This document shows, piece after piece, positions 3,431 through 63,645 of a stretch of DNA of 64,000 bases. Source of the DNA: Bacillota bacterium (GTDB lineage Bacteria; Bacillota_I; Bacilli_A; RF39; UBA660). The first letter of the stretch is position 1; every line of letters starts with the position of its first letter. Location of the stretch: positions 786 through 64,785 of the forward strand of contig JAEWBI010000045.1 of the NCBI GenBank assembly GCA_023391185.1, in the 5' to 3' direction. Below the pieces are notes generated by a model that was not told the origin of the DNA, did not search any database, and was given only the letters and a program-made list of their open reading frames with translations. A program made the translations under genes and the position numbers.

Positions 3431-3490
3431 AGGAAAAAGTTAGATTACTTTTTCTTTTTATATGTTATAATGTTAAAAGGTTGTGGTTTT

Positions 3491-5331: not shown

Positions 5332-7245
5332 ATGGCAAAATACGATGAGAACTCAATTAAAATCCTAGAAGGGTTAGATGCAGTTAGAAAAAGACCGGGT
5401 ATGTATATTGGGTCTACAGACAAAAGAGGATTACATCACTTAGTATGGGAAATCGTTGATAATTCTATTGATGAAGTTATTAATGGTTTTGGTAAAAAAA
5501 TAAAAATAGTATTACATAAAAATGGTTCTTTATCAGTTACTGATGAAGGACGTGGTGTTCCTGTTGGAATGCATACATCAGGTAAAAGTACACCAGAGGT
5601 TATATATACAGTACTTCATGCTGGAGGAAAGTTTGAAACAGGTGGATATAAAGTCTCAGGAGGACTTCATGGCGTAGGTGGCTCTGTTGTTAATGCTTTA
5701 AGTGAGTGGATGGAAGTTAACATTAAAAGAGATGGGTATGAACACTATATTCGTTTTGAAAAGGGTGGACATGTAGCAGTACCGTTAAAACAACTAGAAA
5801 AAACAAGTAAAACAGGTACTACTGTAACATTTAAACCAGATTCTGAGATATTTCAAGTGACAAACTTTTCTTATTCTACAATTACTGAAAGAATGCAGGA
5901 GAGTGCCTTCTTACTTAAAGATTTAACAATTGAAGTAGTTGACGAGATAGAATCTAGAAGCGAAATATTCCATTATGAAAATGGACTATGTGCATTTGTA
6001 GAATATCTTAATGATGATAAAAAAGAATTACATAAAGTAGTCCCATTTAATGGTTCTAAGAATGATATTAATGTAGAAGTAGCTTTTCAGTTTACTGATG
6101 GTTATTCTGAAAATATAGTATCATTTGTTAATAATGTAAAAACTAATGATGGTGGATCGCACGAAGTTGGTTTTAAAACAGCCTTAACTCGTGTTTTTAA
6201 CGATTATGCAAGGACAAATGGTTATTTAAAAGCTAAAGATAAGAACTTAGAAGGTCCAGATACTAGAGAAGGATTAACAGCGATTATCTCTCTTCAAATA
6301 CCAGAAAATTTATTGCAATTTGAAGGACAAACTAAAGGAAAATTAGGTACACCAATTGCGAGAAATGTTGTTGAGAGTATAGTAGCAGAAAAACTTCAAT
6401 TTTATTTAGAAGAAAATAAAGCCATAGCGACAAGTATTATTGAAAAAATGGTAAAAAGTAAAATGGTTAGAGAAGCAGCTAGAAAAGCCAGAGATGAAGC
6501 AAGACAAGGAAAAGATAAAAATAAAAAAGAAAGAGCTCTTTCAGGTAAACTTGCTCCAGCGCAAAGTAAAAATCCTAAGAAAAATGAACTATATTTAGTC
6601 GAAGGAGATTCAGCTGGTGGTTCTGCCAAAGGTGGTCGTGATCGAAAATTCCAAGCTATTCTTCCTCTTCGAGGTAAAGTATTAAACACTGAAAAAGTCC
6701 ATATGGAAGATATATTTAAAAATGAAGAAATTAATACAATGATTCATGCTATTGGTGCAGGAGTTGGATCGGATTTTACAATTGAAGATTCTAATTATGA
6801 TAAAATAATTATAATGACCGATGCTGATGACGATGGAGCACATATTCAAATATTATTAATTACTTTCTTTTATAGATATATGAAGCCATTAATAGAAAAT
6901 GGTAAGCTTTTTATAGCATTACCACCACTGTATAAAGCAGATTATGGTAAAAAACATTTTTATGCCTGGGAAGATAAAGAACTTGAAGAAATTAAAACTA
7001 AAAATTCAGGCAAACCAACAATTTCAAGATATAAAGGACTTGGTGAAATGAATGCTGATCAGTTATGGGAAACAACAATGAATCCTGAAACGAGAAGCTT
7101 AATTAGAATTAATATTAACGATGGTGCTTTAGCTGAAAAAAGAGTAAGTGTACTTATGGGCGATAAAGTTGAACCACGTAAAGAATGGATAGAGGAGAAT
7201 GTTGTCTTCTCACTTGAAGACAATTATAAAATAGAAGATAAATAA
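5332..7245 (+). CDS. parE: DNA topoisomerase IV subunit B
   Basis: GHKL ATPase and TOPRIM motifs (LEGLDAVRKRPGMYIGST, EGDSAGG, DADDDGAHI). Paired with a ParC-type A subunit downstream. SD GGGTGAT precedes ATG 5332. Confidence 0.85.
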   Translation: MAKYDENSIKILEGLDAVRKRPGMYIGSTDKRGLHHLVWEIVDNSIDEVINGFGKKIKIVLHKNGSLSVTDEGRGVPVGMHTSGKSTPEVIYTVLHAGGKFETGGYKVSGGLHGVGGSVVNALSEWMEVNIKRDGYEHYIRFEKGGHVAVPLKQLEKTSKTGTTVTFKPDSEIFQVTNFSYSTITERMQESAFLLKDLTIEVVDEIESRSEIFHYENGLCAFVEYLNDDKKELHKVVPFNGSKNDINVEVAFQFTDGYSENIVSFVNNVKTNDGGSHEVGFKTALTRVFNDYARTNGYLKAKDKNLEGPDTREGLTAIISLQIPENLLQFEGQTKGKLGTPIARNVVESIVAEKLQFYLEENKAIATSIIEKMVKSKMVREAARKARDEARQGKDKNKKERALSGKLAPAQSKNPKKNELYLVEGDSAGGSAKGGRDRKFQAILPLRGKVLNTEKVHMEDIFKNEEINTMIHAIGAGVGSDFTIEDSNYDKIIIMTDADDDGAHIQILLITFFYRYMKPLIENGKLFIALPPLYKADYGKKHFYAWEDKELEEIKTKNSGKPTISRYKGLGEMNADQLWETTMNPETRSLIRININDGALAEKRVSVLMGDKVEPRKEWIEENVVFSLEDNYKIEDK

Positions 7246-29141: not shown

Positions 29142-29195
29142 ATTTTGGGTAGATTAAATTATTTTATATGTGTTATAATTATACTAGGTGATAGT

Positions 29196-31781
29196 ATGAG
29201 AGAGAATAAAGGTTTTACTCTAGTAGAAATGCTAGGGGTACTTATTATATTGATAGTGGTATTTATGATAATGTTCCCTTCACTTACTAAAATAATAAAA
29301 GATACTAATGATAAAATAGATAATGCTACAATAACGGTTATAGAAGATGCGACAACTGATTTTTTATTAGAAAAAAATGATATATATCCTAAGAATGATG
29401 ATTATACTTATTGTATAACTATTGAACAACTTATTGATAATGGAAATTTAACTAATAAAGAGATATCATCTTTAGATGATACAGATAAGTTTGTTAAAAC
29501 AACTTTTGAAAATGGAAAAAGTGTATATGTTTTAACTGATACATGTACAGTTTCAAAACCTAATATTGAGTTTGCACTTATTGGTAATAACAATATGTCT
29601 TTTGAAGTCGGGGTAGGAGGACAATATGTTGAACCTGGTGCAAATGCTAAAAATAAGGCTGGGGAAGTAGTAAGTTATGTAACAGAAATTATTAATAAAA
29701 ATAAGGTGACAGTTGCATATGTTGATACCACTAAAATAGGTGTTTATACTGTAAAATATATTGCAACAATAGATGGAAAAGATTATGCGATTGAAAGAAT
29801 AGTCAAGGTAATTGATACGACTTCGCCAACCATTACAGTAAATCCAACTACTGAAACTATATCTGTTACAAATAAAACATATAATGTTCTAAGTGGAGTG
29901 ACCTCATCAGATAATAGTGGTGTATCTCCAAAAATAACAGCTAGTACTAATTTAAGTTTAGGACAAACTGGAAATTATACTATAACATACACAGCTATAG
30001 ATTCTAGTGGTAATAAAACAACAGCAAAAAGAACCGTTATAATTTCTAGTGGATCACTTGTTAGTATATCAATAGGAGTAACTAGTGTAACACATGAAAT
30101 AAATTCTGGGGTTTATGTTGATCCAGCAGTTAATGCACAAGATATATCAGGTAATGATTTAACATTACAAATTGTTAAAACAATAAGAAAAAATGGTAAT
30201 ATTGTTAGTAGTGTTGATGTTGATAAGATAGAAAAATACTATATAACATATAGTATTACTAGAGAAAATGTAACATATAGTGAGACAAGGACTGTCAATA
30301 TAGTCGATACCACTAAGCCAGTTATAACAGGTGCAGGTGACACTAACATATATGTTACAGATAATACTTACAATGTTATGGCTGGAGTATCAGTAACAGA
30401 TAATAGCGGCGAGATTATTACAATTAATACTGTATCTAATTTAACATTGGGTATTGTTGGCAGTTACAGTGTAACTTATACAGCGACAGACTCATCAGGT
30501 AATACAGCAACAGTTATAAGAATAATAAATGTTTTAGATAATATTTTACCAACTATAGCTTTTAGTAGGAACGGAACTGGTGAATATTTTAAAAATAGTA
30601 GTACAATAGTGACAGTTAGTGATAATGTTGCGGTGAATGCAAGTAGTTTAAAATATTTATGGAGTACAAGTACTAGCACTCCTTCTGAATCTTCATTTGT
30701 AACATCCTTTTCAAATGGTGGAACAATTAATACACCAACAGAAGTAACAGGAATTTATTATTTATGGGTTTTAGGAAAAGATAGTAGTGGAAATATGAAA
30801 ATTACAAGTAGTGGTGCCTTTTATGTTGATAATACTGCCCCTGCGATTACTTTGAATGGCTCAAATTCAATTTCAATTTATGTTAATACAGCTTATAATG
30901 AATTAGGTGCAAATGCAACTGATGCACATAGTGGTATTAGTGGAAACATAATGATAACGGGAACAGTAAATACATCTTCACCAGGAGTTTATTCATTAAC
31001 ATATAGAGCAATTGATTGGGCTGGAAATTATTCTGCTCAATTAACTAGAACTGTAACAGTAAAACCTTATACAGTATATGCAAATGGTACAGCAGTATAT
31101 TTTAATCCAGTAAGTGGAGCAAAATGTACATCGGGTGAAGCAGTAAGTACAACCGGTACTAAAACAGGATGTATGAAATGGTTCGCATTTATTGATGGCG
31201 GCTCAACAACTAGTACTATTAATTTAATCTTAGATCATAATACATCCGCATCAGTAGCTTGGAATTCATCAGGATATAATACAAGTGGTCCAAGCAATGT
31301 TACGACACAGCTTAAAACAGATACTAGTTCTTGGGCAGGAGTACCTACAAGAACTGACAATTATGTATTAAGCAACGGAACAGCGAGTTATACAATAAAT
31401 TACAGCACATATAAAGCTAGATTAATAAAGGCAAGTGAAATAGCAACCATTACGGGCAATGCTGCTTTTGTTGAGACGACATCAACTTCTTCAAGTTACT
31501 TTTATTTAGATAGTAATAATCAAACACAAACAGCAACCACAACAGGTGCTAGTAGATTTGCATGGTTATTTAATTATACTAAGGATTGTACTGGATATGG
31601 ATGTAGTATTGCTGATGCTAGTGTCTGGGGTTATTGGACTTCTACTGCTGTTGCTAGTAATAACACCTATGCTTGGCGCGTTTCTTGTTATGGCAGATTT
31701 GACTTTGACAACAAAGGAGTTAGTGCCAGTTATTCTGGTGTACGTCCTGTTATAACAATATCAAAAGTATTACTAGATTAA
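29196..31781 (+). CDS. giant (861-aa) modular type IV prepilin: pilin module, about six Ig-like repeats, lectin-like C-terminal module
   Basis: MRENKG/FTLVEMLGVLIILIVVF. Extended -10 TGTTATAAT and SD GGTGAT-AGT-ATG. Repeats of the type DTT[SK]P.IT...YNV..GV...DNSG......N....G.Y..TYTA.DSSGN. The C-terminus is paralogous to the 10455 product. Confidence 0.88.
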   Translation: MRENKGFTLVEMLGVLIILIVVFMIMFPSLTKIIKDTNDKIDNATITVIEDATTDFLLEKNDIYPKNDDYTYCITIEQLIDNGNLTNKEISSLDDTDKFVKTTFENGKSVYVLTDTCTVSKPNIEFALIGNNNMSFEVGVGGQYVEPGANAKNKAGEVVSYVTEIINKNKVTVAYVDTTKIGVYTVKYIATIDGKDYAIERIVKVIDTTSPTITVNPTTETISVTNKTYNVLSGVTSSDNSGVSPKITASTNLSLGQTGNYTITYTAIDSSGNKTTAKRTVIISSGSLVSISIGVTSVTHEINSGVYVDPAVNAQDISGNDLTLQIVKTIRKNGNIVSSVDVDKIEKYYITYSITRENVTYSETRTVNIVDTTKPVITGAGDTNIYVTDNTYNVMAGVSVTDNSGEIITINTVSNLTLGIVGSYSVTYTATDSSGNTATVIRIINVLDNILPTIAFSRNGTGEYFKNSSTIVTVSDNVAVNASSLKYLWSTSTSTPSESSFVTSFSNGGTINTPTEVTGIYYLWVLGKDSSGNMKITSSGAFYVDNTAPAITLNGSNSISIYVNTAYNELGANATDAHSGISGNIMITGTVNTSSPGVYSLTYRAIDWAGNYSAQLTRTVTVKPYTVYANGTAVYFNPVSGAKCTSGEAVSTTGTKTGCMKWFAFIDGGSTTSTINLILDHNTSASVAWNSSGYNTSGPSNVTTQLKTDTSSWAGVPTRTDNYVLSNGTASYTINYSTYKARLIKASEIATITGNAAFVETTSTSSSYFYLDSNNQTQTATTTGASRFAWLFNYTKDCTGYGCSIADASVWGYWTSTAVASNNTYAWRVSCYGRFDFDNKGVSASYSGVRPVITISKVLLD
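31082..31778 (+). repeat. dispersed ~0.7-kb paralogous coding module (copy 2 of 2; the partner is 10885-11579)
   Basis: See 10885-11579. Confidence 0.8.
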
Positions 31782-43319: not shown

Positions 43320-43469
43320 TATTTTCTTTTTTTGTCATAATAATATTTTTCCGATAATATTAATTAGTACAATAATATAGATATTGTATTGTTTTTCCAA
43401 AAAAGTGAATTTATGTTATTGACTAATTATCTAAATTAATCTATACTGTTTTGTAATAGCAATATTATT

Positions 43470-43658
43470 TTCATAGACGAGTACTTATAAACTATGTTCT
43501 AGAGAAAATGTGGATGGTGTAAACATAACTATGTTTATAATGAAAGACACTATGAAGTAAGGTAATCGTAATTCTGCGTTAAAGAATTAGAGGTAGATTA
43601 AAGTCTATAAAACAAGGTGGTACAGCGTGCATCACGCCCTTGTATTTATAGACTTTTT
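43470..43658 (+). promoter_or_regulatory. T-box riboswitch leader, specifier GAC (Asp), copy 1
   Basis: Promoter TTGACT(43419)-17-TATACT(43442). Stem I TTCATAG/CTATGAA. Specifier loop AGTA // TGAAAGACA. AGAGA at 43501. F-box GCGTTA. T-box core AACAAGGTGGTACAGCGTG at 43611-43629. U-tract at 43654-43658. Confidence 0.85.
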
Positions 43659-43683
43659 GCGTATTTATAGGAGGTTTTTGAAT

Positions 43684-46044
43684 ATGGCAAGCGTTGAAAA
43701 GAATGATCTAACTTATTTTGGTGTACTAATGAATAGAAAGCTTATTAGTACTGGAATTTATCTATTTAAGCCTGAGTATTTAATTGAGGGAACAATTTCG
43801 GAAGAAGATAAGAATGTTTATTTTACAGATACATTAGAAAATGAATATTTAACAATTCATGATACTGAAACTTTGTCTATTGATGAGGAAACAGCTGTTG
43901 GATATATCATATCTGATGAAGAATTAACAAAAAAATATCCAGATTTATCCATTCCAGAAGCAAAGGTTGCTTACTTTGATCAAGTTCGTGATATGGCCCA
44001 TTTAGGTTTTTATGTGTATGATGAAGATTTAATTGCCGTAATGCCAATAGATTTATTAACTATGTCTCAGACAATTAATAGTATGAAAAAAAATCCAGAT
44101 TCTAACATAATTAAAGTACCAAGCAGTACTTTTATGCAACCGGATATGAGTGGTTTTGATGATACAAAAGATAATCCAACAAATTTAGAAGAACTTAAAG
44201 AAAGTGATTTTGTTGTCATTAGTATTGACTTGTTTAAAGATATATTTGAAGCGAAAACTTTTGAAGAAATGAAAGAAAAACTTAATGTAATAAAAGGTGC
44301 ATACGATAGTATGAATTCATTATTAGTTGATGAAAATGGTAATATTGAAACACCAAAAAATCTTAATGTTGAACAATTTTTTGAAAGAAAAGTTACTGGC
44401 AAGCACATAATTGATTTATTTAATGCTAGTCATGATGCTTTACTCGCAATTGATGATATTGAACAATTAAAAGAAACAATAAAACAAATTGTTGATGTTT
44501 ATACTGATTTAAGTTATGTTCTTGATGGCAAGGAAAATCTAGGATCACATGTTGATCTAGCGCAAGACTATTTATATTCACTAATTGATGAATATGAAGA
44601 ACTATTAACAATTGACGATTTAACTATAATCAAAAACAAAACAACAGAAATTTTAAATAAACAATTTAAAAATATTAGTGCCATATCTAACACATATGAT
44701 GAGTTATCAAAGAAAAATGAGTTAGCTGAAGTGAAAATAGAACATGAAGAGAAACAAGAAGAATTAGAAAGTGCCTTTAATAAAAAAAGTATAACTAACT
44801 CAAGATTTAATTATGTAAATGTATATAATCAAATGATTGAAAGAATAATAGGGAGAGATAAACAAATAGGTAATATTCTTACCGCTATAGATAAAATGGA
44901 TGCATCTGTAGGAACAAATAAAAAGTATTCAGTTTTAATAGCTGGCACAACAGGTACAGGTAAAACACAAACATTTAATGAACTTAAAAAAGCAATGCCT
45001 GACAGACCTATTGTTATAGTAGATACAAATCAGTTAACACAAGAAGGTTATATTGGTGGTAAGATAGAAAAGAATATTTTAGGTGCATTACTTATGGAAG
45101 CACACAATATAAATAATAAAGGTAAAAAGGATAATGGAACAATAACACCAGCAGATTTAGAACTTGCAGAGACTGGAATTGTTGTTCTTGATGAAATAGA
45201 TAAAAGAGCTGAAAAAGGTGGAGGATCTAAAGATAATGTCAACTGCGGTGCAGTAGTAGATCAATTACTTAAATTTATGGATGGAACTACTTATACTGCT
45301 GAAGTAGGAAAACAAGCAATTCCATTTGATACTTCTAAAGTTGGTGTTATGGCAAGTGGTGCTTTCCAAGAATATTTTGATGAGAAAGAAAAAGGGGAAA
45401 AGCGCTTAGGTTTTGCTAGTGGATCAAAAAATGATGAAGATGAATTTAAAAAATATTCTGAAGTTAAGCCTGAAGATTTGGTTAAATATGGACTAGATAA
45501 TCAGTTTATAGGTAGATTTCAATCTGTTATATTATATCCTCCTCACACTTTAGAATCACTTATAGAACTTGAAACAACACAGGCTACTTCAAATATTGAA
45601 GTAGAAAAAATTTACTTTAATTCTAAAGGACTAGAACTTGTTTGTGATGATGAATTTATTGAAACAGCTGCAGCAGCTGCGATTAAACTTAAAACTGGTG
45701 GCCGTGGTCTTAGCAATATAATTTCAAGATGTTTATCAAATGTTGGTGATGAAATTAATAGAAATCCTAATACTTATAAGATTTTATATTTACCAAAAGA
45801 AGCAGTAGATGATCCAGGCAAAGTTATGCTTCTTAAAAAAACAGGTGGTCATATTTTAATGGAAGAAGTTTTTAGAAGAAATATAGAAGAAGGTAAAGGA
45901 ACGAGAAAGTTAAAGAGAATTAGTTTTAATAAGGATGCTTTAAACGAAGTTATGAAGTATAAAAACACTTTATGTAAAAATGAAAGTGTAGGTATGGAGA
46001 TATCTCATGATAATCAGAAACTAAAACAGATGGGTAAGAATTAA
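43684..46044 (+). CDS. ClpX-like AAA+ ATPase with a ~400-aa N-terminal region of unknown fold
   Basis: SD AGGAGG 8 nt before ATG 43684 (the track start 43627 falls inside the leader). Colinear with ClpX: GTTGTGKT, TQEGYIGG (pore-1 GYVG), VVLDEIDK, DTSKV..ASGAF, RLGFAS (IGF loop), PEDLVKYGL..QFIGRF, TGGRGL. Confidence 0.8.
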   Translation: MASVEKNDLTYFGVLMNRKLISTGIYLFKPEYLIEGTISEEDKNVYFTDTLENEYLTIHDTETLSIDEETAVGYIISDEELTKKYPDLSIPEAKVAYFDQVRDMAHLGFYVYDEDLIAVMPIDLLTMSQTINSMKKNPDSNIIKVPSSTFMQPDMSGFDDTKDNPTNLEELKESDFVVISIDLFKDIFEAKTFEEMKEKLNVIKGAYDSMNSLLVDENGNIETPKNLNVEQFFERKVTGKHIIDLFNASHDALLAIDDIEQLKETIKQIVDVYTDLSYVLDGKENLGSHVDLAQDYLYSLIDEYEELLTIDDLTIIKNKTTEILNKQFKNISAISNTYDELSKKNELAEVKIEHEEKQEELESAFNKKSITNSRFNYVNVYNQMIERIIGRDKQIGNILTAIDKMDASVGTNKKYSVLIAGTTGTGKTQTFNELKKAMPDRPIVIVDTNQLTQEGYIGGKIEKNILGALLMEAHNINNKGKKDNGTITPADLELAETGIVVLDEIDKRAEKGGGSKDNVNCGAVVDQLLKFMDGTTYTAEVGKQAIPFDTSKVGVMASGAFQEYFDEKEKGEKRLGFASGSKNDEDEFKKYSEVKPEDLVKYGLDNQFIGRFQSVILYPPHTLESLIELETTQATSNIEVEKIYFNSKGLELVCDDEFIETAAAAAIKLKTGGRGLSNIISRCLSNVGDEINRNPNTYKILYLPKEAVDDPGKVMLLKKTGGHILMEEVFRRNIEEGKGTRKLKRISFNKDALNEVMKYKNTLCKNESVGMEISHDNQKLKQMGKN

Positions 46045-46096
46045 AAAGATATTGACTATTTTTAAAATAAACCTTATAATTAATTAGTAATTATTG

Positions 46097-46284
46097 TTTT
46101 AGATTAGTAATTATATTAACTTTGAAGAGAGAATTAACGGTTGGTGAAAGTTAACAAAGCTATATAATGAATGACACTAAAACTAAAGATAATCGTATTT
46201 CTGCGTTAAGGAATTCAAGGTAGATAAAGTCTATAAAGTAAGGTGGCAACACGTGATGTACGTCCTTACATTTATAGACTTTTT
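46097..46284 (+). promoter_or_regulatory. T-box riboswitch leader, specifier GAC (Asp), copy 2 (hisS-aspS)
   Basis: Promoter TTGACT(46052)-17-TATAAT(46075). Stem I TTTTAG/CTAAAA. Specifier loop AGTA // GAATGACA. AGAGA at 46126. GCGTTA. T-box core AGTAAGGTGGCAACACGTG. U-tract. Confidence 0.88.
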
Positions 46285-46309: not shown

Positions 46310-47599
46310 ATGATACAAAAACCAAAGGGAACATATGATGTATATGGTGAAAAAGGAAAACAAATATCTTATATTGAAGACTTGTTAAAAGCTTTAATGA
46401 CTAAATATAACTATGAATATTTTAAGACACCTATATTTGAAGCAAGTGAACTATTTCATAGAGGAGTAGGGGAAACAACTGATATTGTAACAAAAGAAAC
46501 TTATGATTTTAAAGATCGTGGTGATAGAGATATGACTTTAAGACCAGAGGGAACTGCTGGGGTAGTAAGAAGTTTTGTTGAAAATAAGATGTATGGTAAT
46601 CCTACAATGCCTGTAAAGGCATGGTATTTTGGTCCGATGTTTAGATATGAAAGACCACAATCTGGTAGATTTAGAGAATTTAACCAATTTGGTGTAGAAG
46701 TATTTGGCAGTGATGATCCAATGACAGATGCTGAAGTTATAAGTATTCCTGTTAATATTTATAAAATGTTAGGTTTAAAAGGAATTAAAGTAAACATTAA
46801 TAGTTTGGGAGATAAAGAGTCTCGTGAGAATTATCGTGAAGCATTAGTAAATCACTTTGCTCCTGTTATTGATACATACTGTGAAGATTGTAAGGAAAGA
46901 TTTAAAAAGAATCCACTTAGAATACTTGATTGTAAAATAGATCACGAAAAATCTGAAATGAAAAGTGCTCCAACTACAATTGATTATTTAAATGAAGTAA
47001 GTAAAAAACATTTTGATAAAGTGAAAGAATGTTTAGATGCATTAGGTATTGATTATGTTGTCAATCCAAGTGTTGTTAGAGGACTTGATTATTATACACA
47101 CACTGTATTTGAAGTAGAAGCATGTATTGAATCTTTTGGTTCTCAAAATGTGCTTTGTGGTGGTGGTAGATATAATGGTTTAATTGAAAACTTAGGTGGC
47201 CCTGAAACAAGTGGTGTAGGTTTTGCTTTAGGCCTTGAACGTTTACTTAATGCACTTGAAGCAGAGGAGATAACTCTTCCATATGATAAAGGATTAGATA
47301 TTTATGTAATACCTATGAGTGAAGAACAAAAAACATATGCTTTTGCTTTAACTCAAACATTAAGAATGTCTGGTTTCAGTGCTGATATAGATTATATGAA
47401 TCGTAAGATAGCGTCTAATTTTAAACAAGCTGATAGATATAACGCAAAATATGTAATTATAATAGGTGAAGAAGAAATTAGTAGTAATATACTTACTATT
47501 AAAAATAATGAAACTAAAGAAGAATATAAAGTTAATTTAGAAGAAATAATAGATTTCTTTGATGAACAAATAGAGGAGGAACATCATGAAGAAGATTAA
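46310..47599 (+). CDS. hisS: histidine--tRNA ligase
   Basis: Class II motifs (LRPEGTAGVVRS, FRYERPQSGRFREFNQ, GGGRYNGL). Confidence 0.93.
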   Translation: MIQKPKGTYDVYGEKGKQISYIEDLLKALMTKYNYEYFKTPIFEASELFHRGVGETTDIVTKETYDFKDRGDRDMTLRPEGTAGVVRSFVENKMYGNPTMPVKAWYFGPMFRYERPQSGRFREFNQFGVEVFGSDDPMTDAEVISIPVNIYKMLGLKGIKVNINSLGDKESRENYREALVNHFAPVIDTYCEDCKERFKKNPLRILDCKIDHEKSEMKSAPTTIDYLNEVSKKHFDKVKECLDALGIDYVVNPSVVRGLDYYTHTVFEVEACIESFGSQNVLCGGGRYNGLIENLGGPETSGVGFALGLERLLNALEAEEITLPYDKGLDIYVIPMSEEQKTYAFALTQTLRMSGFSADIDYMNRKIASNFKQADRYNAKYVIIIGEEEISSNILTIKNNETKEEYKVNLEEIIDFFDEQIEEEHHEED

Positions 47600-48902
47600 A
47601 ATAAATGAGTTAAGTAATAATTTTAATGATGAAGTTATAATTGAAGGTTTTATTGATAACATTAGAGATTTACAATGGGTACAATTTGTTATTTTAAGAG
47701 ACAAAACTGGTAAAGTACAAATTACTATTGAAAAAAGTGAAGAAAAAAATAAAGAAATGGTTGAATTAATTAGTAATTTGACTTTAGAAAGTACTATTAA
47801 AGTAACTGGTAAAGTAATAGAAAATCCAAAAGTTAAGTTAAATGGAATGGAAATTACTCCAACATATATTGAAGTTACTTCTAGTTCTCTTGGAGAACTG
47901 CCAGTTAATATTAAAGATAAGAATGCTTCTGAAATAGATACTAGATTAGATTTTAGATTCTTAGATTTACGTAATGAGTATAACGCTGGTATATTTAAAG
48001 TTCAAAGTGAACTTGTAAAAGCAATGCGTGAATGTTTATATAGTAAAGACTTTACTGAAATTCATACACCTAAATTAATTGGAGCTGCTAGTGAAAGTGG
48101 TTCAGAAGTTTTTGAAGTAAAATACTTTGACCGTAAAGCGTATCTAGCACAATCACCACAATTTTATAAGCAAATGGCTATGTCAGCTGGTTTTGAAAGA
48201 ATATTTGAAGTAGGACCAGTGTTTAGAGCAGAAAATTCAAATACTAATAGACATACAACTGAATTTACTGGCTTCGATCTAGAGTTTAGTTATATTGATT
48301 CTTATGTAGATGTAATGGATCTTGAAGAAGAAATGTTAACTTATATGCTTAAAAAAGTTCATGAAAAATATGGTGATATGATAAAAGAATTATATCAAGT
48401 AGATGTAATTGTCCCAACTAAGAAATTTCCAAGAATAAAACTTGCTGACTTATATAATGAACTTGAGAAAAGATATGGATACAGTGTTCCAGACTCAGCT
48501 CAAACAGATTTAACTACAGAAGCTGAGAAACTAGCATATAAGTATGCTATGGAAGAATTTGATTCTGAATTTATATTTGTTACAGACTATCCAAAAGATA
48601 AGCGTGCATTTTATCATATGCGTAAAGATGGTATACCACAAGGCTTCGACTTAATATGGCGTGGTGTTGAAATCACAACAGGTGCTCAAAGAGAACATCG
48701 CTATGAAATTCTTAAAGAGCAAGCTGCTGAAAAAGGACTAGATAAAGATGTTGAGTTCTATTTAGAATTCTTTAAGTATGGATGTCCTCCACACGGTGGA
48801 TTTGGCCTTGGTGTTGATAGATTAACTATGTTATTATTAAATTTACCTTCTTTAAAAGAAGCAATGTTTATATTTAGAGGACCAAATAGATTAAACCCTT
48901 AA
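47586..48902 (+). CDS. aspS: aspartate--tRNA ligase, short archaeal/eukaryal-type (possibly non-discriminating)
   Basis: 438 aa with no bacterial GAD insertion. FRAENSNTNRHTTEFTGFDLEFSY, GGFGLGVDRL, and a C-terminal F.RGPNRLNP (archaeal AspRS-type ending). Sits behind an Asp-specifier T-box. Confidence 0.8.
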   Translation: MKKIKINELSNNFNDEVIIEGFIDNIRDLQWVQFVILRDKTGKVQITIEKSEEKNKEMVELISNLTLESTIKVTGKVIENPKVKLNGMEITPTYIEVTSSSLGELPVNIKDKNASEIDTRLDFRFLDLRNEYNAGIFKVQSELVKAMRECLYSKDFTEIHTPKLIGAASESGSEVFEVKYFDRKAYLAQSPQFYKQMAMSAGFERIFEVGPVFRAENSNTNRHTTEFTGFDLEFSYIDSYVDVMDLEEEMLTYMLKKVHEKYGDMIKELYQVDVIVPTKKFPRIKLADLYNELEKRYGYSVPDSAQTDLTTEAEKLAYKYAMEEFDSEFIFVTDYPKDKRAFYHMRKDGIPQGFDLIWRGVEITTGAQREHRYEILKEQAAEKGLDKDVEFYLEFFKYGCPPHGGFGLGVDRLTMLLLNLPSLKEAMFIFRGPNRLNP

Positions 48903-49001: not shown

Positions 49002-50351
49002 ATGGTAAAGGATATTGATAAATTTAAAAAAGAAATGTTAGAGCGTAATAAAAAAAGGAAAAAGGGATTTACTTTAATAGAATTACTTGCAGTTTTTGTT
49101 GTACTTGCGGTAGTTGCGGGGGTTGCTATTTTTTCTATTAATAATATAGAAGAAGAATTATCTGCAAAATCTTATGGTGAATCTGTAAAAAATGTTATTT
49201 CATCAGCTCAAAATTATTACTCTTCCAATGCAGAAACAGGGTTTCCTCCTGCTGGGTTATCGGTATTATCTGATGAAATAGAAATTGAAAATAAGAACCA
49301 GTATAAAAATGGTTTAATAATATACAATTCCATAACAGGAAAATTAGAAGCCAAGAACATCACAGATGGCAATTACTGTGCCAATGGTCCAATCGATAAT
49401 TTGAATATTGTTGAGGGAGAGTGTCCTTCAACTGATCTTGCTTGTTTTGATTATACTAAAGCAAGCGGCAAAGTGACTATCACTGGTTTCGATTATAGTA
49501 ACAACTCTTGCTTAGGATATGTAACAGTCCCATCAACAATTGAAGGATTACCTGTAACAAAAGTTGGGTTTGCAGCTTTTGCTGACACTAATAAAATTAC
49601 TCCAGAAGCATGTGAACCAAATGAAGAATTCTTAGTTCCATCTTTCACAACAACAGGAACATCATCTATAAAAATAACTGCTACTCCATTATCATCAACC
49701 TATGCTTTAGAGGTTGATGATAACTGTGTAAGTTATACCAATTTTTATGATCATACAGCTGATGGTGAATATAGCTGCGGATGCAGTTTGTTTAATGTTC
49801 AAGGTATGACTGTAGGGAATAGTGGTAGCAAACTACTAGGAATTACTCTTCCAAGTACAATAACTTATATAGACAATTTAGCATTTGCTAAAACGTCATT
49901 AAACTATATAAATTTGAATAGTTTAACTGAATTAACCTATATAGGGGATTCTAGTTTTAAAGACACTAATTTATTAAGTTTGGATTTTTCTGGATTAAAT
50001 AAACTTTCGACAATAGGTTATGCCGCTTTTAATGGAAGTAGTATTAACAAATTAAATATAACTAATCTTTATAATTTGGCAATTATAAGAAGTGGTGCTT
50101 TTTCAGAAAATAATATTGAGAGTTTGGACTTTACTGGTAGTAATAATATCACACACATAGGGACAGGTGCTTTTGCTAGTAATCAAATATCTGATATTAA
50201 GATAAATAATTTAACTAAACTAAATTCTCTTTGGTATGGAGCATTTTGTGGTAATCCATTTACACTATCATCAGATACTTTACCTGATACATCGAATTTA
50301 ACAGGAGTAGAGGTTTCAAAACTAGTTTCAGCTTGTTTATTGGAAAATTAA
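49002..50351 (+). CDS. modular type IV prepilin with a C-terminal BspA-type leucine-rich-repeat module
   Basis: A 22-aa leader ending KKG/FTLIELLAVFVVLAVVAGVAIFS. The TDGNYCANG...GEC loop is shared with the 21846 product. Repeats of the type L..I.IP..vt.Ig..AF. Confidence 0.85.
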   Translation: MVKDIDKFKKEMLERNKKRKKGFTLIELLAVFVVLAVVAGVAIFSINNIEEELSAKSYGESVKNVISSAQNYYSSNAETGFPPAGLSVLSDEIEIENKNQYKNGLIIYNSITGKLEAKNITDGNYCANGPIDNLNIVEGECPSTDLACFDYTKASGKVTITGFDYSNNSCLGYVTVPSTIEGLPVTKVGFAAFADTNKITPEACEPNEEFLVPSFTTTGTSSIKITATPLSSTYALEVDDNCVSYTNFYDHTADGEYSCGCSLFNVQGMTVGNSGSKLLGITLPSTITYIDNLAFAKTSLNYINLNSLTELTYIGDSSFKDTNLLSLDFSGLNKLSTIGYAAFNGSSINKLNITNLYNLAIIRSGAFSENNIESLDFTGSNNITHIGTGAFASNQISDIKINNLTKLNSLWYGAFCGNPFTLSSDTLPDTSNLTGVEVSKLVSACLLEN

Positions 50352-50422
50352 AATTATTAAATAAAGTGAGTATTGATGTAAACTCTATTTTCAAATCTAA
50401 AAATTTATGTTATAATTAATAT

Positions 50423-50597
50423 ACCTAAGAAACATATAGTAGCACTTATGAAAAACCTACTAATATAACGAATTGGGAATCTAATTTATAGATGGTGTTG
50501 AATGCTTACTACGTTAAGAATCCTAAAGTTTATAATGTGATGCCCACCTGGGAGATCAGGTTTTACTCGTTATGCTACTGTTTCCTAGGTTTTTTTG
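50423..50597 (+). ncRNA. candidate 6S RNA (SsrS/BsrA-like)
   Basis: Extended -10 TGTTATAAT at 50408-50416. A ~175-nt non-coding stretch whose ends pair (CCTAAGAAACA..AGTAGCA with TGCTACT..TGTTTCCTAGG). Inner helix AAAACC/GGTTTT around an asymmetric bubble. Sits in the aspS-tcdA interval, where B. subtilis has 6S-1. Confidence 0.55.
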
Positions 50598-58142: not shown

Positions 58143-59540
58143 ATGAGATTATATAATACATTAACAAGAGAAATAGAAGATTTTAAACCAATTAATGATA
58201 AAGAAGTTACTATGTATACATGTGGTCCTACTGTTTATCACTTTGCACATATAGGTAATTTAAGATCTTATATATGTGAAGATATACTAGAAAAGTCATT
58301 AAATTATTTAGGTTATAATGTTAAAAGATGTATGAATATTACAGATGTTGGACATTTAAGTAGTGATTCTGATAGTGGTGAAGATAAAATGCTTAAAGGT
58401 GCTGTTAGAGAACATAAATCAGTTCTTGAAATTGCGTCATACTATACTGAAGCATTTAAAGAAGATTGTAAAAAACTTAATATAACTTGGCCTAAAATAG
58501 TTTCATCAGCAACTGATAATATACACGAATATATTAAGATAATTACAGAATTGTTAGAGACAAACCATGCTTATATAGCTGGTGGTAATGTATATTTTGA
58601 TACATCAAAGTTAAAAGACTACTATGTACTTACTAACCATAAAGAAGATGAAATGGTTGTAGGTGTAAGAGATGGCGTTGAAGAAGATAATAATAAGAGA
58701 AATCAAGCGGATTTTGTTCTTTGGTTCACCAAATCAAAGTTTGCTGATCAGGAACTTAAATGGGAAAGTCCATGGGGATATGGATATCCAGGATGGCATA
58801 TTGAATGTTCTGGTATTTCACTTAAATATTTAGGTGAATATCTAGATATTCATTGTGGTGGTGTTGATAATATTTTTCCTCATCATACTAATGAAATTGC
58901 TCAGTCTGAAAGTTATTTAGGTCATAGATGGTGTAATCACTGGTTTCATGTTGAACATTTAAATGATAGTACTGGTAAAATGAGTAAATCAAAAGGGGAG
59001 TTTTTAACTGTTTCTTTACTAGAAGAAAAAGGTTATAGTCCTCTTGCATATCGTTTAATGTGCATGCAGTCACATTATCGTAAACAATTATTATTTACAT
59101 ATGATGCTTTAGATAATGCAACCAGTGCTTATAATAAATTATTAAGTAAAATTAAAAACTTAAAAGATAATAAAGAAGGTAAAATTGAAGGAACTGATGA
59201 TTATATAGAGCAATTCAAAAATTCATTAGCCGATGACTTAAATACTGCTACTTCTTTAACAATACTATATGATGTACTAAAAAGTGATTTAAATAGTAAT
59301 TCTAAGTTATATGTAGTTTCTGAATTTGATAAGGTATTATCATTAAATTTACTTGATGATAATATAGTAGAAATTAATAAAGATACTAAAAAGTATATAG
59401 ATGAAATGATTGAAAAAAGAAATATTGCTAAAAGAGAAAAAGACTTTACTTTAGCCGATGAAATTAGAGATGAATTAGCTAGTAAAAATATCTTTATTAA
59501 AGATACTAGAGAAGGAACTACTTACGAGATAAGAGATTAA
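58143..59540 (+). CDS. cysS: cysteine--tRNA ligase
   Basis: Class I motifs HIGN and KMSKS. Zn ligands. C-terminal DALR-like domain. Confidence 0.93.
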   Translation: MRLYNTLTREIEDFKPINDKEVTMYTCGPTVYHFAHIGNLRSYICEDILEKSLNYLGYNVKRCMNITDVGHLSSDSDSGEDKMLKGAVREHKSVLEIASYYTEAFKEDCKKLNITWPKIVSSATDNIHEYIKIITELLETNHAYIAGGNVYFDTSKLKDYYVLTNHKEDEMVVGVRDGVEEDNNKRNQADFVLWFTKSKFADQELKWESPWGYGYPGWHIECSGISLKYLGEYLDIHCGGVDNIFPHHTNEIAQSESYLGHRWCNHWFHVEHLNDSTGKMSKSKGEFLTVSLLEEKGYSPLAYRLMCMQSHYRKQLLFTYDALDNATSAYNKLLSKIKNLKDNKEGKIEGTDDYIEQFKNSLADDLNTATSLTILYDVLKSDLNSNSKLYVVSEFDKVLSLNLLDDNIVEINKDTKKYIDEMIEKRNIAKREKDFTLADEIRDELASKNIFIKDTREGTTYEIRD

Positions 59541-60456: not shown

Positions 60457-60570
60457 AAGAAGTTACAAGTAACATTGTAACTTCTTTTAAAAACTCTTTT
60501 ATATTTAATAAAAGTATGTTATAATTTATATATATAAAATAGAGTAAAAGGGAATTGGCAGGTGCTACAT

Positions 60571-62862
60571 ATGCAAAATAAGCCTATATACGTATGGCCA
60601 TTTATACTAGTTTATAGAGTTGTAATAATAATTCTAAAACTACCACTGGCTGTAATACATTATTTTTTAATGGGATTCTTTTTTTCGATATATACGTTAA
60701 TAGAAGTATTTGTTGATTTAGGAATATTTATTTCATTTGTTTGGTGGAGTTTCTTAAAATATTTATTTTTAGGAATATCTTTTCCATTCGTATTTGTTGC
60801 AAGAATTTTAAAAAACAAGAAAGTTTCTCCTCATAAAGAAAAAACTATTTTGTTTGAAAAAACTAAGGAAAAACCTAAGAAGAACAATATAATAAAACTA
60901 AAAACAGAACCAGCTAAGGCTGCAAGTACAGCTACTGCTGTACTTAATACAGGTCAACTTCGCAAGAAAGAAAATAGCAAAGAAGAAACTTTGAAAGTTG
61001 ATAAGGAACTTAAGAGATTAAAACAAGTTGCTGATAAAGAAGCTGCTATTCATGCTAAAAAGATGGAACAACTTCGCAAAAAAGAAGAAATTAAAGCTGC
61101 AAAAGAAAAAGCCCAATTAGATAAAATAACAAAGAAAAAGGCTTTAGAAGAAGAAGCTAAGAAAAAACAAGAGGCAGCCGAAGAATTAAAAGAACAACAA
61201 AGGTTGATGCGTGAATATAAGCGTAAACAAGAATATGATGCTGCTTTAGAAAAAAAGAAAAAATCAGAAGCTATTTCGCAACCAAAGAAAGAAAAAGTAA
61301 AGAGTATAGCTTTAACTAAAAAAGAAGAGGCTAGGGCTGCAAAGCAAAAATTAAAGCAAGAAAAGATTCAGCGTAGGAAAGAACTAGCAGCTGAAAAGAA
61401 AAAACTAAAAGAAAAAAATACTTATATTAACGATAAAGTTGTTATTGAAAAGAAAACACTTGGAGACCGAATTAATTCGGGATTAGAAACTCTTATAAAA
61501 GTTCCAAAAATGTTTTCTCAAAAAATCAAAAAAAGTTTTACTGATTCTTCTTTTGCAAGAAATAAGCGTAATCAGGAAGACATGCATCGTGAGGCTTTAC
61601 TTATTGACTTTGAAAGTGATGACGCTAAGAAAAGTGATAAGAAGATTGTTTATGAATATGTTGGTAAAAATGCCGAAGGTAAATTAATTAAATCATATTT
61701 TGAAGCCTTTTCCAAGGTGGAAGTACATTCATTCTTATTAAGCGAAGGTTTTGAAGTATATAGTATCAAGACAAGTCCTTTAATTACATTTTTGCATGGT
61801 GCTAAGCAGTCAAGAAATGTAAAATTTAAAGTTAAAGACTTAATATTTTTCTTGACACAGTTATCAACTTATATTAAAGCTGGTATTCCGCTTGTTGAAT
61901 CACTTAGAATTTTAAGTAGACAATTTCCTCAAAAAGGATATCAAAAAGTATTTAGATCTTTAATTTATGATTTAACAATGGGTGACAATTTTAGTGTTGC
62001 TTTAGAGAAGCAAGGAACTGCTTTTCCAAAATTACTCGTAAATATGATTAAAACTTCTGAAATGACTGGAGAACTTCCAGAAACACTTGACGATATGCAA
62101 GTTTATTTTGAAGAGGCAGAAAAGACAAAGAAACAAATGATTACTGCTCTTACTTATCCAACAATAGTGTTTGTACTTGCTGTTGGAGCAATTACTTTCA
62201 TTATGATATATATAGTTCCACAATTTGCAGGAATATATGCTGATATGGATAATGCTAAGTTACCAGGAATTACTGTTGCAATAATGAATTTAAGTGATTT
62301 CTTGAAAAATTACTGGATATATGTAATAGCAACAATATTTGGAGCTATATTTATATTCGTCTATTTATATAAAAATGTAAAACTATTTAGAACACTTATT
62401 CAGTGGTTTATGATGAAATTACCTATTATAGGTAATGTAATTATTTATAATGAAGTTACAATGTTTACTAAAACATTTGCTTCACTTTTAAAACACAATG
62501 TATTTATTACTGATACAATGGAAATTTTAAATAAAATTACAAATAATGAGATTTGGAAAATGCTTATTTTAGACACAATTACAAACTTGGCAAAGGGAGA
62601 AAAAATTTCACTTGCTTTCCAAGATCATTGGGCTGTACCAATACCCGCATATGAAATGATAGTTACTGGAGAACGTACTGGTCAATTACCAGAAATGATG
62701 CAAAAGGTTTCAGATTATTATCAAGAACTTCATAAAAATGCGGTTGGTAGGATTAAAGCTTTTATTGAACCAATACTAATCTTGTTCCTAACTGGGGCTG
62801 TTGGTGTTATTGTTCTTTCTATAGTAATTCCAATGTTTGACATGTATAATCAACTAGGATAA
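60571..62862 (+). CDS. type II secretion system F family platform protein (PilC/ComGB-like) with a ~355-aa N-terminal extension
   Basis: Residues ~360-763 are a canonical double T2SSF domain (YEYVGKNAEGK..., GIPLVESL, MIKTSEMTGELP, GERTGQLP). Residues 1-85 are hydrophobic and residues ~90-290 are K/E-rich. Confidence 0.85.
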   Translation: MQNKPIYVWPFILVYRVVIIILKLPLAVIHYFLMGFFFSIYTLIEVFVDLGIFISFVWWSFLKYLFLGISFPFVFVARILKNKKVSPHKEKTILFEKTKEKPKKNNIIKLKTEPAKAASTATAVLNTGQLRKKENSKEETLKVDKELKRLKQVADKEAAIHAKKMEQLRKKEEIKAAKEKAQLDKITKKKALEEEAKKKQEAAEELKEQQRLMREYKRKQEYDAALEKKKKSEAISQPKKEKVKSIALTKKEEARAAKQKLKQEKIQRRKELAAEKKKLKEKNTYINDKVVIEKKTLGDRINSGLETLIKVPKMFSQKIKKSFTDSSFARNKRNQEDMHREALLIDFESDDAKKSDKKIVYEYVGKNAEGKLIKSYFEAFSKVEVHSFLLSEGFEVYSIKTSPLITFLHGAKQSRNVKFKVKDLIFFLTQLSTYIKAGIPLVESLRILSRQFPQKGYQKVFRSLIYDLTMGDNFSVALEKQGTAFPKLLVNMIKTSEMTGELPETLDDMQVYFEEAEKTKKQMITALTYPTIVFVLAVGAITFIMIYIVPQFAGIYADMDNAKLPGITVAIMNLSDFLKNYWIYVIATIFGAIFIFVYLYKNVKLFRTLIQWFMMKLPIIGNVIIYNEVTMFTKTFASLLKHNVFITDTMEILNKITNNEIWKMLILDTITNLAKGEKISLAFQDHWAVPIPAYEMIVTGERTGQLPEMMQKVSDYYQELHKNAVGRIKAFIEPILILFLTGAVGVIVLSIVIPMFDMYNQLG

Positions 62863-62880
62863 TCAAAAGAGGGGGTATTT

Positions 62881-63645
62881 ATGGAATTATATTATGGAAT
62901 TGTTATGCTTATATTTGGAACCATATTTGGTTCCTTTTACAACGTAGTAGGAGATAGATTACCTGATGGTAAGTCAATAGTAAAACCTGGCAGTCATTGT
63001 CCAAAATGTGGACATATGCTTAAACCAATTGAGCTAATACCGGTTTTATCTTATATTATGCAAGGTGGAAAATGCAAGAAATGTAAATGTAGAGTACCGA
63101 TATTTCATCCATTATTTGAGATATTTGTAGGTCTATTATTTCTTGGATGTTATTTATCCTTTGGTATCAGTACCAATCTAATAATTGCTCTAACATTTGC
63201 CTCAATGCTTGCAATATTAATAGTGAGTGATTATTATTATATGATTATACCAGATGAGGTATTAATAGTTTTTGGAATATTATTATTAATAGAGACTTTT
63301 GCAATATCAGGTCTAAGTGTTACATTAACATCTATATTAAATGGTGCAATAGCATTTGTTTGTATGTTTGGAATAAAAAAGTTTGGAGATTTTCTATTTA
63401 AAACAGATTCAATGGGTGGTGGTGACATTAAGTTATTATTCTTCTTTGGGTTTGTTCTAGGATGGGAAATGTCTATATTTTCAATATTTATAGGCTCTTT
63501 AATAGGATTACCAATATCCTTAATTACTTTAAAAGTTAAAAAAACAAACATAATTCCTTTTGGACCGTTTTTATCATTTGGAGCACTTATTATAATGTTA
63601 ACACATTTTGATATGGCGTCTCTTATAAGTATGTTATTAAGTTAA
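62881..63645 (+). CDS. pilD: prepilin peptidase (A24 family, PilD/ComC)
   Basis: N-terminal Cys4 (CPKCGH...CKKCKC). Catalytic Asp contexts IVSDYYYMIIPD and GGGDIKL. Confidence 0.9.
   Translation: MELYYGIVMLIFGTIFGSFYNVVGDRLPDGKSIVKPGSHCPKCGHMLKPIELIPVLSYIMQGGKCKKCKCRVPIFHPLFEIFVGLLFLGCYLSFGISTNLIIALTFASMLAILIVSDYYYMIIPDEVLIVFGILLLIETFAISGLSVTLTSILNGAIAFVCMFGIKKFGDFLFKTDSMGGGDIKLLFFFGFVLGWEMSIFSIFIGSLIGLPISLITLKVKKTNIIPFGPFLSFGALIIMLTHFDMASLISMLLS

Follow-up and report, generated by a model that had tools for sequence, protein, structure and literature searches.

A T-box leader of the hisS-aspS lineage upstream of a gene for a ClpX-like AAA+ protein in an uncultured Bacillota bacterium

Aminoacyl-tRNA synthetase genes, and genes for the biosynthesis or transport of amino acids, are the targets usually ascribed to T-boxes. 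Annotators routinely assign the gene behind the leader to an amino acid on the basis of the specifier codon, and for about 8% of T-boxes the gene that follows has an unknown or unrelated function (PMC2494555). For example, the T-box of the Bacillus subtilis rtpA/anti-TRAP operon (cited in PMC2494555) reports tRNA charging to a protein that is no enzyme of amino-acid supply. Among the non-synthetase outputs described in the portions of this literature that were searched, none is an AAA+ unfoldase or a component of a protease. T-boxes of hisS-aspS operons with GACAC in the specifier loop are also known, and are read as Asp-specific (PMC5313534, citing Gutierrez-Preciado 2009). The present analysis concerns a 64-kb window, i.e., the whole stretch of Bacillota bacterium DNA that was analysed (assembly GCA_023391185.1, contig JAEWBI010000045.1, positions 786 to 64,785), in which a T-box leader and the gene for a ClpX-like AAA+ protein occupy positions 43419-46044 of the + strand. 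The favoured explanation, which we consider probable, is that a T-box of the hisS-aspS (Asp) lineage gates this ClpX-family unfoldase, the expression of which would thus be controlled by tRNA charging.

The first part of this leader, called leader 1, and the promoter comprise the following elements, the leader being listed over its full length.

43419..43447, + strand: sigma-70-type promoter TTGACT-17-TATACT, with 10/12 consensus matches, the second-best promoter-like site in the region (a consensus match alone being weak evidence).
43465..43644, + strand: T-box leader no. 1 (Stem I, Stem IIA/B with F-box, Stem III and antiterminator; Stem II absent), RF00230 score 84.0 bits.
43470-43476 / 43550-43556, + strand: Stem I closing helix TTCATAG/CTATGAA, which covaries.
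43480-43483 / 43542-43544, + strand: S-turn AGUA ... GAA, placed by the Rfam alignment.
43501-43505, + strand: AG bulge AGAGA of distal Stem I, placed by the Rfam alignment with high posterior probability.
43567-43581, + strand: Stem IIA/B region with the F-box (CGUUA), CGUAAUUCUGCGUUA, aligned to RF00230.
43669..43674, + strand: Shine-Dalgarno sequence AGGAGG at a distance of 9 nt from the start codon (ATG, 43684), read from the sequence.
43684..46044, + strand: coding sequence (CDS) of the 786-aa ClpX-like AAA+ protein (Pfam, NCBIfam and public gene calls).

The covariance model RF00230 matches leader 1 from end to end, with an E-value of 4.8e-18 in a 3.1-kb search and of 9.9e-17 over the whole window. 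An initial annotation, made from the letters of the window, had placed a T-box here; every leader coordinate and the promoter that it gave match the sequence, and the covariance scan in E-value mode is significant, though below the gathering score. The distal loop of Stem I, GGAUGGUG, is aligned with high posterior probability and would provide the platform for the tRNA elbow. GCGTTA lies at 43576-43581 and the T-box core at 43611-43629, while UGCGUUAA, in the Stem IIA/B and F-box region, is invariant in 12 related leaders. Among these 12 leaders, 95.7% of the pair cells hold standard pairs and nine pairs change on both sides, an extent of covariation that none of 500 shuffles (0/500) reaches. 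The orthologous leader of one relative (L090) scores 93.5 bits against RF00230, and the promoter is also present in relatives, e.g., in L092.

The remainder of the leader constitutes the expression platform.

43593..43608 (43593-97/43604-08), + strand: Stem III (GUAGA / UCUAU), 100% paired in 12 leaders, with GU, AU or GC as closing pair.
43614..43641, + strand: antiterminator made of AAGG/CCUU and GCGUG/CACGC helices around a 7-nt bulge UGGUACA (43618-43624), from the Rfam alignment; the pairs are conserved, two of them changing on both sides.
43600..43658, + strand: intrinsic terminator, a long hairpin (43600-43617 with 43638-43656) followed by a U-run (43654-58), from the minimum-free-energy and consensus structures.

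Pairs of the lower terminator stem covary (alignment columns 160/210, 165/205, 169/200 and 170/199), and the predicted energies are -25.8 kcal/mol for the terminator versus -9.2 kcal/mol for Stem III plus antiterminator without tRNA. In a textbook T-box, the terminator shares the 3' strand of the antiterminator; no such partner for this strand is found in the downstream sequence. In leader 1, the antiterminator instead lies inside the terminator hairpin, and the competitor of the terminator is Stem III, whose 3' strand (GUCUA) also forms part of the terminator base. As this arrangement departs from the textbook one, the switching mechanism is one that we infer: Stem III together with a tRNA-capped antiterminator would compete with the extended hairpin.

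The tRNA to be sensed is indicated by the specifier and by the antiterminator bulge.

43546..43548, + strand: specifier GAC (Asp), followed by the purine A43549 and then by the Stem I closing pair C43550-G43476, in the register of the Rfam alignment.

The initial annotation had read an Asp specifier, and the canonical register of the Rfam alignment indeed gives GAC and then a purine. The specifier column holds GAC in leader 1 and in a second leader of the window described below, in all hisS leaders, and in L088, L090 and L100. It holds AAC in the leaders of AAA+ genes in L083, L084 (both), L087 (both) and L092, that is, exclusively in leaders with AAA+ genes as their sole targets, and never in hisS-aspS leaders. 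The L083 leader differs by 3% from leader 1, the G-to-A specifier change included. In all leaders, UGG is followed in the bulge by U or C. In tRNA-Asp and tRNA-Asn the discriminator base is G73, and in bacterial tRNA-His it is C73; a UGGU or UGGC bulge therefore fits Asp or Asn, and not His. A reading as a tRNA-His sensor deserves mention nonetheless, since GACAC occurs in the specifier loop of both window leaders, and 12/12 leaders share an invariant ACAC, whereas G alternates with A two positions upstream; the codon would then be the CAC within GACAC or AACAC, with the G/A change outside it. It is in keeping with this reading that hisS belongs to the ancestral operon and that GACAC has been noted as characteristic of hisS-aspS leaders (PMC5313534). 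The same source nevertheless reads GACAC as Asp. Moreover, the third base of CAC, C43550, is engaged in a pair with G43476 (pair 29/105, GC in 12/12), the base that follows CAC is U and not the conserved purine, the Rfam alignment sets GAC or AAC on the codon positions, and the bulge pairs with G73, not C73. Sensing of tRNA-His is thus considered quite improbable, and regulation by the charging of tRNA-Asp or tRNA-Asn is well supported.

The second leader, its promoter and the genes that it controls lie directly downstream of the AAA+ gene and were absent from the initial annotation.

46052..46080, + strand: second promoter, TTGACT-17-TATAAT, with 11/12 consensus matches, the best in the region.
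46091..46270, + strand: T-box leader no. 2 (leader 2), with a GAC specifier, which controls hisS-aspS; RF00230 81.1 bits, E 2.8e-17.
46310..47599, + strand: hisS, histidine--tRNA ligase (TIGR00442, 491 bits, above the cut-off).
47586..48902, + strand: aspS, archaeal-type non-discriminating aspartate--tRNA(Asn) ligase (NF003483, 495.8 bits versus a cut-off of 353).

Leader 2 is a paralogue of leader 1 (72% identical), with the same reduced architecture and the same terminator design, and an E-value-mode scan of the 64 kb with RF00230 returns these two T-boxes only, both of them Asp leaders. Leader 1 resembles the hisS-aspS Asp T-box of Firmicutes in RNA family and in GACAC context (PMC5313534), and differs from the hisS-aspS T-boxes in that its output is an AAA+ unfoldase, not a synthetase, and that the specifier is AAC in some relatives. 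Since a non-discriminating AspRS charges both tRNA-Asp and tRNA-Asn with Asp, GAC and AAC would report the same step; this equivalence is drawn from knowledge of the transamidation route, which is also summarised in PMC2494555.

The history of the locus can be traced in relatives, which are designated here by L numbers (L081/82 being the window's own contig, counted apart). The full-length protein has about 20 close homologues among 5.8 billion clusters, named only 'AAA family ATPase [Bacilli bacterium]' in the sources, and public assemblies carry an identical call of the 786-aa gene. A scan of genome contigs with the full-length alignment mostly recovers canonical ClpX genes and one true relative (L001), and a metagenome-contig scan returned two loci. 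Among relatives of the 786-aa gene, the order relA-dtd-(AI-2E)-AAA+-hisS-aspS is conserved; in the window, relA, dtd and a gene for an AI-2E-family transporter (Pfam) lie 5' of the AAA+ gene. Leaders were also located with the signature TGCGTTAA-N25-50-AAGGTGG, which occurs at 14 loci, always immediately 5' of hisS or of the AAA+ gene(s), and at 0/86 other loci. These signature leaders span about nine distinct relatives' loci (L083, L084/86/93, L087, L088/89, L090/91, L092, L099 and L100). Two arrangements are encountered.

L088, L090 and L099 (32-36% protein identity to the window): a single operon, with one T-box, the AAA+ gene, and hisS 39-86 nt downstream.
L083 (89%), L084/L086/L093 (66%) and L087 (46%): a T-box of its own for each unit, including a SpoVK-type second AAA+ gene where present.

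The single-leader operon is the form found in the most distant relatives, which suggests that it is the ancestral state. Two classes of leader can be told apart, those of AAA+ genes (91-99% identity within the class) and those of hisS (90-97%), with about 70% identity between classes; because the classes are separate, the leader duplication predates the split of these species. The AAA+ leader was duplicated again for the second AAA+ gene in L084, L086 and L087. T-box duplication, insertion and specificity change are known evolutionary modes (PMC2494555). Since leader 1 is paralogous to the hisS-aspS leader, and since the AAA+ gene is the first cistron in distant relatives, the coupling to tRNA-Asp was inherited from an aminoacyl-tRNA synthetase operon rather than invented de novo; judged by these comparisons, the inherited coupling has then been kept and elaborated. 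The proposal of the initial annotation, a new output for T-box regulation, is accordingly to be taken in part: a literature search found no publication on a T-box before a ClpX-like or other AAA+ gene, nor on a T-box and proteolysis, whereas the coupling itself is a legacy of the synthetase operon.

Side observations on these loci concern further leaders and paralogues. A SpoVK/CbbX-type AAA+ protein with the same N-terminal domain as the window protein is encoded behind its own Asn-specifier T-box at L084 6672-8639, L086 6665-8632, L087 6477-8459 and L092 494-2460. A leader with T-box features (GAC and AAGGTGGCACAGCG) precedes a second AAA_2-type gene and hisS at L100 3700-3900; it is missed by Rfam at E<=0.01, and was found by eye and by pattern search.

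Conservation of the leader can be compared with that of the surrounding genes, given below as nucleotide identity of the window to L083, L084 and L087, respectively.

AAA+ leader: 96.9, 90.8 and 93.4%.
AAA+ CDS: 88.9, 74.8 and 72.6%.
AI-2E CDS: 92.8, 80.3 and 80.8%.
hisS CDS: 93.2, 87.3 and 85.8%.

The conservation of the AAA+ leader equals that of the hisS leader and is above that of every flanking gene. Judged from leader versus CDS identities, the AAA+ leader is under purifying selection. The linkage of T-box and unfoldase gene, the persistence of which in relatives the initial annotation had left to be looked at, is kept down to 32-36% protein identity; as far as sequence comparison reaches, it is demonstrably old, conserved, duplicated and, in some relatives, changed in its specifier. 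As a separate observation, the AAA+ CDS diverges faster (73-75% nucleotide identity, window versus L084 and L087) than hisS (86-87%) or the AI-2E gene (80-81%), and the N-terminal domains of paralogues that carry different ATPase modules are nearly identical (P0010, P0004 and P0008). Taken together, these two features suggest recombination or domain swapping.

The product of the gene is best compared with ClpX. Residues 386-720 form a ClpX-family AAA+ module, the best PDB matches of which are ClpX chains (E 5e-25 to 2e-19, versus about 1e-8 for HslU), which places the AAA+ part within the ClpX/HslU family. Scores for the NCBIfam ClpX equivalogs NF003745 and TIGR00382 lie below both cut-offs (114.6 versus 359, and 96.4 versus 370.75). 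The functional motifs of the module, with their conservation in an alignment of 15 homologues (A1), are listed below.

44944..44967, + strand: Walker A GTTGTGKT, residues 421-428; G421, T423, G424, G426, K427 and T428 invariant (A1).
45046..45057, + strand: pore-1 loop GYIG, residues 455-458, aligned with GYVG of ClpX; G455, Y456 and G458 invariant (A1).
45181..45204, + strand: Walker B VVLDEIDK, residues 500-507; D503, E504, D506 and K507 invariant (A1).
45406..45414, + strand: LGF, residues 575-577, at the position of the IGF (ClpP-docking) loop of ClpX, aligned with LGF of the solved ClpX 8yd0.
45514..45516, + strand: arginine finger R611 (FIGRF), aligned with FIGRL of ClpX; G610 and R611 invariant (A1).
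45703..45705, + strand: sensor-II arginine R674 (TGGRGL); G672 and R674 invariant (A1).

Within LGF, G576 is invariant and F577 is conserved at >=90% (A1), and the consensus in 60 wider relatives is IGF. Walker A and B, pore-1, arginine finger, sensor-II and LGF, which were recognised at the outset, are all conserved in homologues. The large and small AAA+ domains of ClpX (PDB 6po1, 3hws and 8yd0) are colinear with the window protein and share its Walker A and B, pore-1 GY[IV]G, FIGR, TGxRGL and xGF motifs. Differences are found as well. The Cys4 zinc-binding domain of ClpX is lacking and a 385-aa acidic domain stands in its place; Pfam gives no zf-C4_ClpX match, and residues 1-385 hold zero cysteines. 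The RKH-loop region is shortened, a point that the initial annotation did not mention: in the 8yd0 alignment, GTQASVPPQGGRKHPHQEF corresponds to GTTYTAEVGKQA, which is 7 residues shorter and has no RKH. A 15-residue insertion follows the pore-1 region (NNKGKKDNGT...), and the C-terminus is extended by about 100 aa. An argument from Asp- and Asn-rich composition was dropped, as the 14.5% Asp+Asn of the protein lies inside the 7-16% range of its neighbours.

The N-terminal domain is the most distinctive part of the protein.

43684..44838, + strand: N-terminal domain, residues 1-385 (AlphaFold2 and profile search).

According to AlphaFold2, it would consist of a beta-rich subdomain (residues ~10-133), a disordered linker and a helical subdomain (~180-385), with mean pLDDT (predicted local distance difference test) values of 69.5 and 77.8 for the two models and about 90 for the beta part (30-sequence alignment). 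Its net charge is -39. The models have no match at E<=1e-3 in PDB or BFVD (Foldseek), Pfam matches no part of the protein outside the AAA part, and PADLOC gives no match to this domain; the N-terminal ~400 aa that the initial annotation could not assign thus remain ~385 aa without Pfam, PDB or viral (BFVD) fold match. A profile of the domain (A4) defines a family of uncultured Bacilli in which a ~350-420-aa N-terminal domain is followed by an AAA+ module, with 187 cluster representatives at E<=1e-3 and 106 at E<=1e-10 among 1.84 billion; a word-index protein search with the same profile yielded almost no additional relatives. All the members scanned (60/60) have an AAA domain (47 AAA_2, 36 ClpB_D2-small and 10 AAA_lid_6), most being ClpX-like and ten SpoVK-like. 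The SpoVK/CbbX-type module (Pfam AAA plus AAA_lid_6) is found on the paralogue with the same N-terminal domain in L084, L086, L087 and L092, and not in the window. The N-terminal domain and the C-terminal [IL]GF tail of this paralogue are not features of SpoVK or CbbX; 15/16 SpoVK-class proteins with this domain (P0010, P0036, P0038, P0039 and others) end in [IL]GF within the last ~20 residues. These tails, together with the internal xGF, lead to the hypothesis that a ClpP-type docking partner may be shared.

Two other origins were considered for the gene and rejected. An anti-phage defence system is suggested only by a 65-residue P-loop match to mad8 (E 2.7e-5, PADLOC-DB), and the chromosomal synteny is conserved; on account of this synteny, a mobile or phage origin is likewise rejected.

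Under the favoured explanation, the promoter at 43419-43447 would start a ~230-nt transcription-attenuating leader, which by default would fold into the long terminator hairpin (43600-43656) with its U-run. An uncharged tRNA-Asp would place its anticodon on the Stem I specifier, GAC, while the free NCCA end would pair with the UGGU part of the antiterminator bulge UGGUACA. Binding would stabilise Stem III and the antiterminator and, as Stem III holds the GUCUA strand needed by the terminator base, RNA polymerase would read into the 786-aa gene. The product would be an AAA+ translocase of the ClpX family whose ATPase site, pore-1 loop and IGF-like LGF loop are intact. As to its history, the gene would have been the first cistron of a T-box-AAA-hisS-aspS operon, the leader of which was duplicated in the window's lineage, leaving the AAA+ gene and hisS-aspS each with its own promoter and T-box, and in several relatives the AAA+ copy would have switched its specifier to AAC (tRNA-Asn). 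Falling charging of Asp- or Asn-tRNA would then give more unfoldase which, probably with ClpP, would unfold or degrade substrates chosen by the N-terminal domain.

Several observations weigh against this explanation, first of all on the RNA side. Leader 1 scores 84.0 bits, below the curated Rfam gathering score of 93, and this is why a default Rfam scan of the window at the gathering threshold returns two tRNAs and one 6S RNA and no T-box. The shortfall is due to the deletion of RF00230 positions 9-14 and 105-132 (Stem I base and Stem II), which are missing from 12/12 related leaders too: the leader has no Stem II, and its Stem I shows no evident K-turn at the base. It is thus not 'complete' in the canonical sense, contrary to what had first been written of it. 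The terminator that encloses the antiterminator, its helices and UGGUACA bulge included, is also not the textbook arrangement, and the leader of L099 has UGC at the specifier position of the canonical register. (This leader, at 3290-3466 in a T-box-AAA+-hisS operon, has a degenerate S-turn, with UAG for GAA, and its UGC specifier (Cys) fits neither its operon nor its UGGU bulge.) With a score of 84 bits against a cut-off of 93, Stem II absent and the default scan silent, the T-box-like sequence might be a decayed relic that does not switch, the gene being expressed by readthrough or not at all. Such a relic would hardly be expected to match the model at E about 1e-16, to have an orthologous leader at 93.5 bits in L090, or to keep all functional motifs intact, with covariation that maintains Stem I, antiterminator and terminator and with a leader more conserved than coding DNA. 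Furthermore, the hisS-aspS leader, which is necessarily functional, has the same reduced architecture and an even lower score (81.1 bits). Decay of leader 1 is therefore judged highly improbable.

On the side of the genes, the Stem I distal loop, which normally contacts the tRNA elbow, is missing from both AAA+ leaders of L087. These leaders (3799-3965 and 6276-6440) carry a 12-14-nt deletion and score 57-59 bits with Rfam, the hisS leader of the same contig being intact; this loss may represent decay of the leader there. Wider members of the family (L094, L095, L096-98 and L001) have no T-box and lie in unrelated housekeeping contexts, adjoining rpsU/rplS, rpoB and ftsK, and the core job of the protein therefore does not need tRNA sensing. 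All sequences, moreover, come from metagenome-assembled genomes of uncultured Bacilli. A general housekeeping unfoldase could have landed by chance between a T-box and hisS, the T-box being real and the coupling accidental. The T-box-free relatives, the leader that is plainly a copy of the hisS-aspS leader, and the lost distal loop in L087 would all agree with such hitch-hiking. Under accidental coupling, however, one would not expect the AAA+ leader to be kept after hisS had gained its own, at 91-97% identity across species and above the flanking coding DNA, nor a further duplication for the second AAA+ gene (L084, L086 and L087), a specifier that became AAC solely in leaders devoted to AAA+ genes, or a linkage that persists at 32-36% protein identity. 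Hitch-hiking is considered rather unlikely.

A last group of points bears on what the unfoldase does. LGF is a positional match only to the ClpX IGF loop, so that docking on ClpP, and with it the proteolysis step, is a prediction. Proteolysis with ClpP or remodelling would both be conceivable functions, as would the recycling of amino acids and the remodelling of translation factors put forward at the outset. The protein might thus be a peptidase-free remodelling chaperone for HisRS/AspRS, for the transamidation complex or for stalled translation complexes, co-expressed because it acts on or with the synthetases. SpoVK/CbbX-type ATPases act without peptidase, and the second paralogue is of this type; the operon with hisS-aspS in L088, L090 and L099, the shortened RKH-loop region and the strongly acidic N-terminal domain also speak for a chaperone. 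Against it stand the conserved [ILM]GF at the IGF-loop position and the [IL]GF tails of the SpoVK class, of which docking on a ClpP-like ring is the simplest reading, and all the substrates named are putative. A remodelling chaperone is possible, although we hold it to be unlikely. Pfam finds no Clp family, and hence neither ClpP nor canonical ClpX, among the 38 longest open reading frames of the window, this search being confined to the 64 kb.

The favoured gating by tRNA charging can be extended, tentatively and with the odds against it, to a starvation circuit in uncultured Bacilli. T-boxes reading tRNA-Asp and tRNA-Asn would switch on dedicated ClpX-like unfoldases (and, in relatives, SpoVK-like, IGF-tailed ones) that share an acidic substrate-selecting domain, dock on ClpP and degrade defined proteins, side by side with the RelA/(p)ppGpp response, whose gene lies just upstream. 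If gating is true, protein unfolding or degradation would join what tRNA charging regulates directly. It would also open a functional route to a protein family that comprises at least 187 clusters and carries no label but 'AAA family ATPase', as well as to a domain without known fold relative. For T-box evolution, the locus would offer a single-base GAC/AAC toggle beside a non-discriminating AspRS; for T-box mechanism, a terminator that competes with Stem III and not with the antiterminator 3' strand.

Further features of the window are of a general nature. A 6S RNA is found downstream of the locus at 50419-50595, where its 61.4 bits exceed the gathering score, and one also follows aspS in L088 (9142-9307). 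The cysS gene (58143-59540) has no T-box upstream, E-value mode included. The G+C content of the window is 27.7%, and cell-wall hydrolases (M23 and NlpC/P60) are encoded, from which the organism is taken to be a low-GC, uncultured member of the Bacilli with a cell wall. The regions 49002-50351, 29145-31781 and 60562-63645 feature a fusion of BspA-type leucine-rich repeats to a pilin-like protein that bears an N-terminal methylation motif, a large surface protein containing immunoglobulin-like domains, a T2SSF-domain protein of 766 aa and a prepilin peptidase; similar leucine-rich-repeat and immunoglobulin-like proteins are encoded between the AI-2E gene and the AAA+ gene in L084 and L086.

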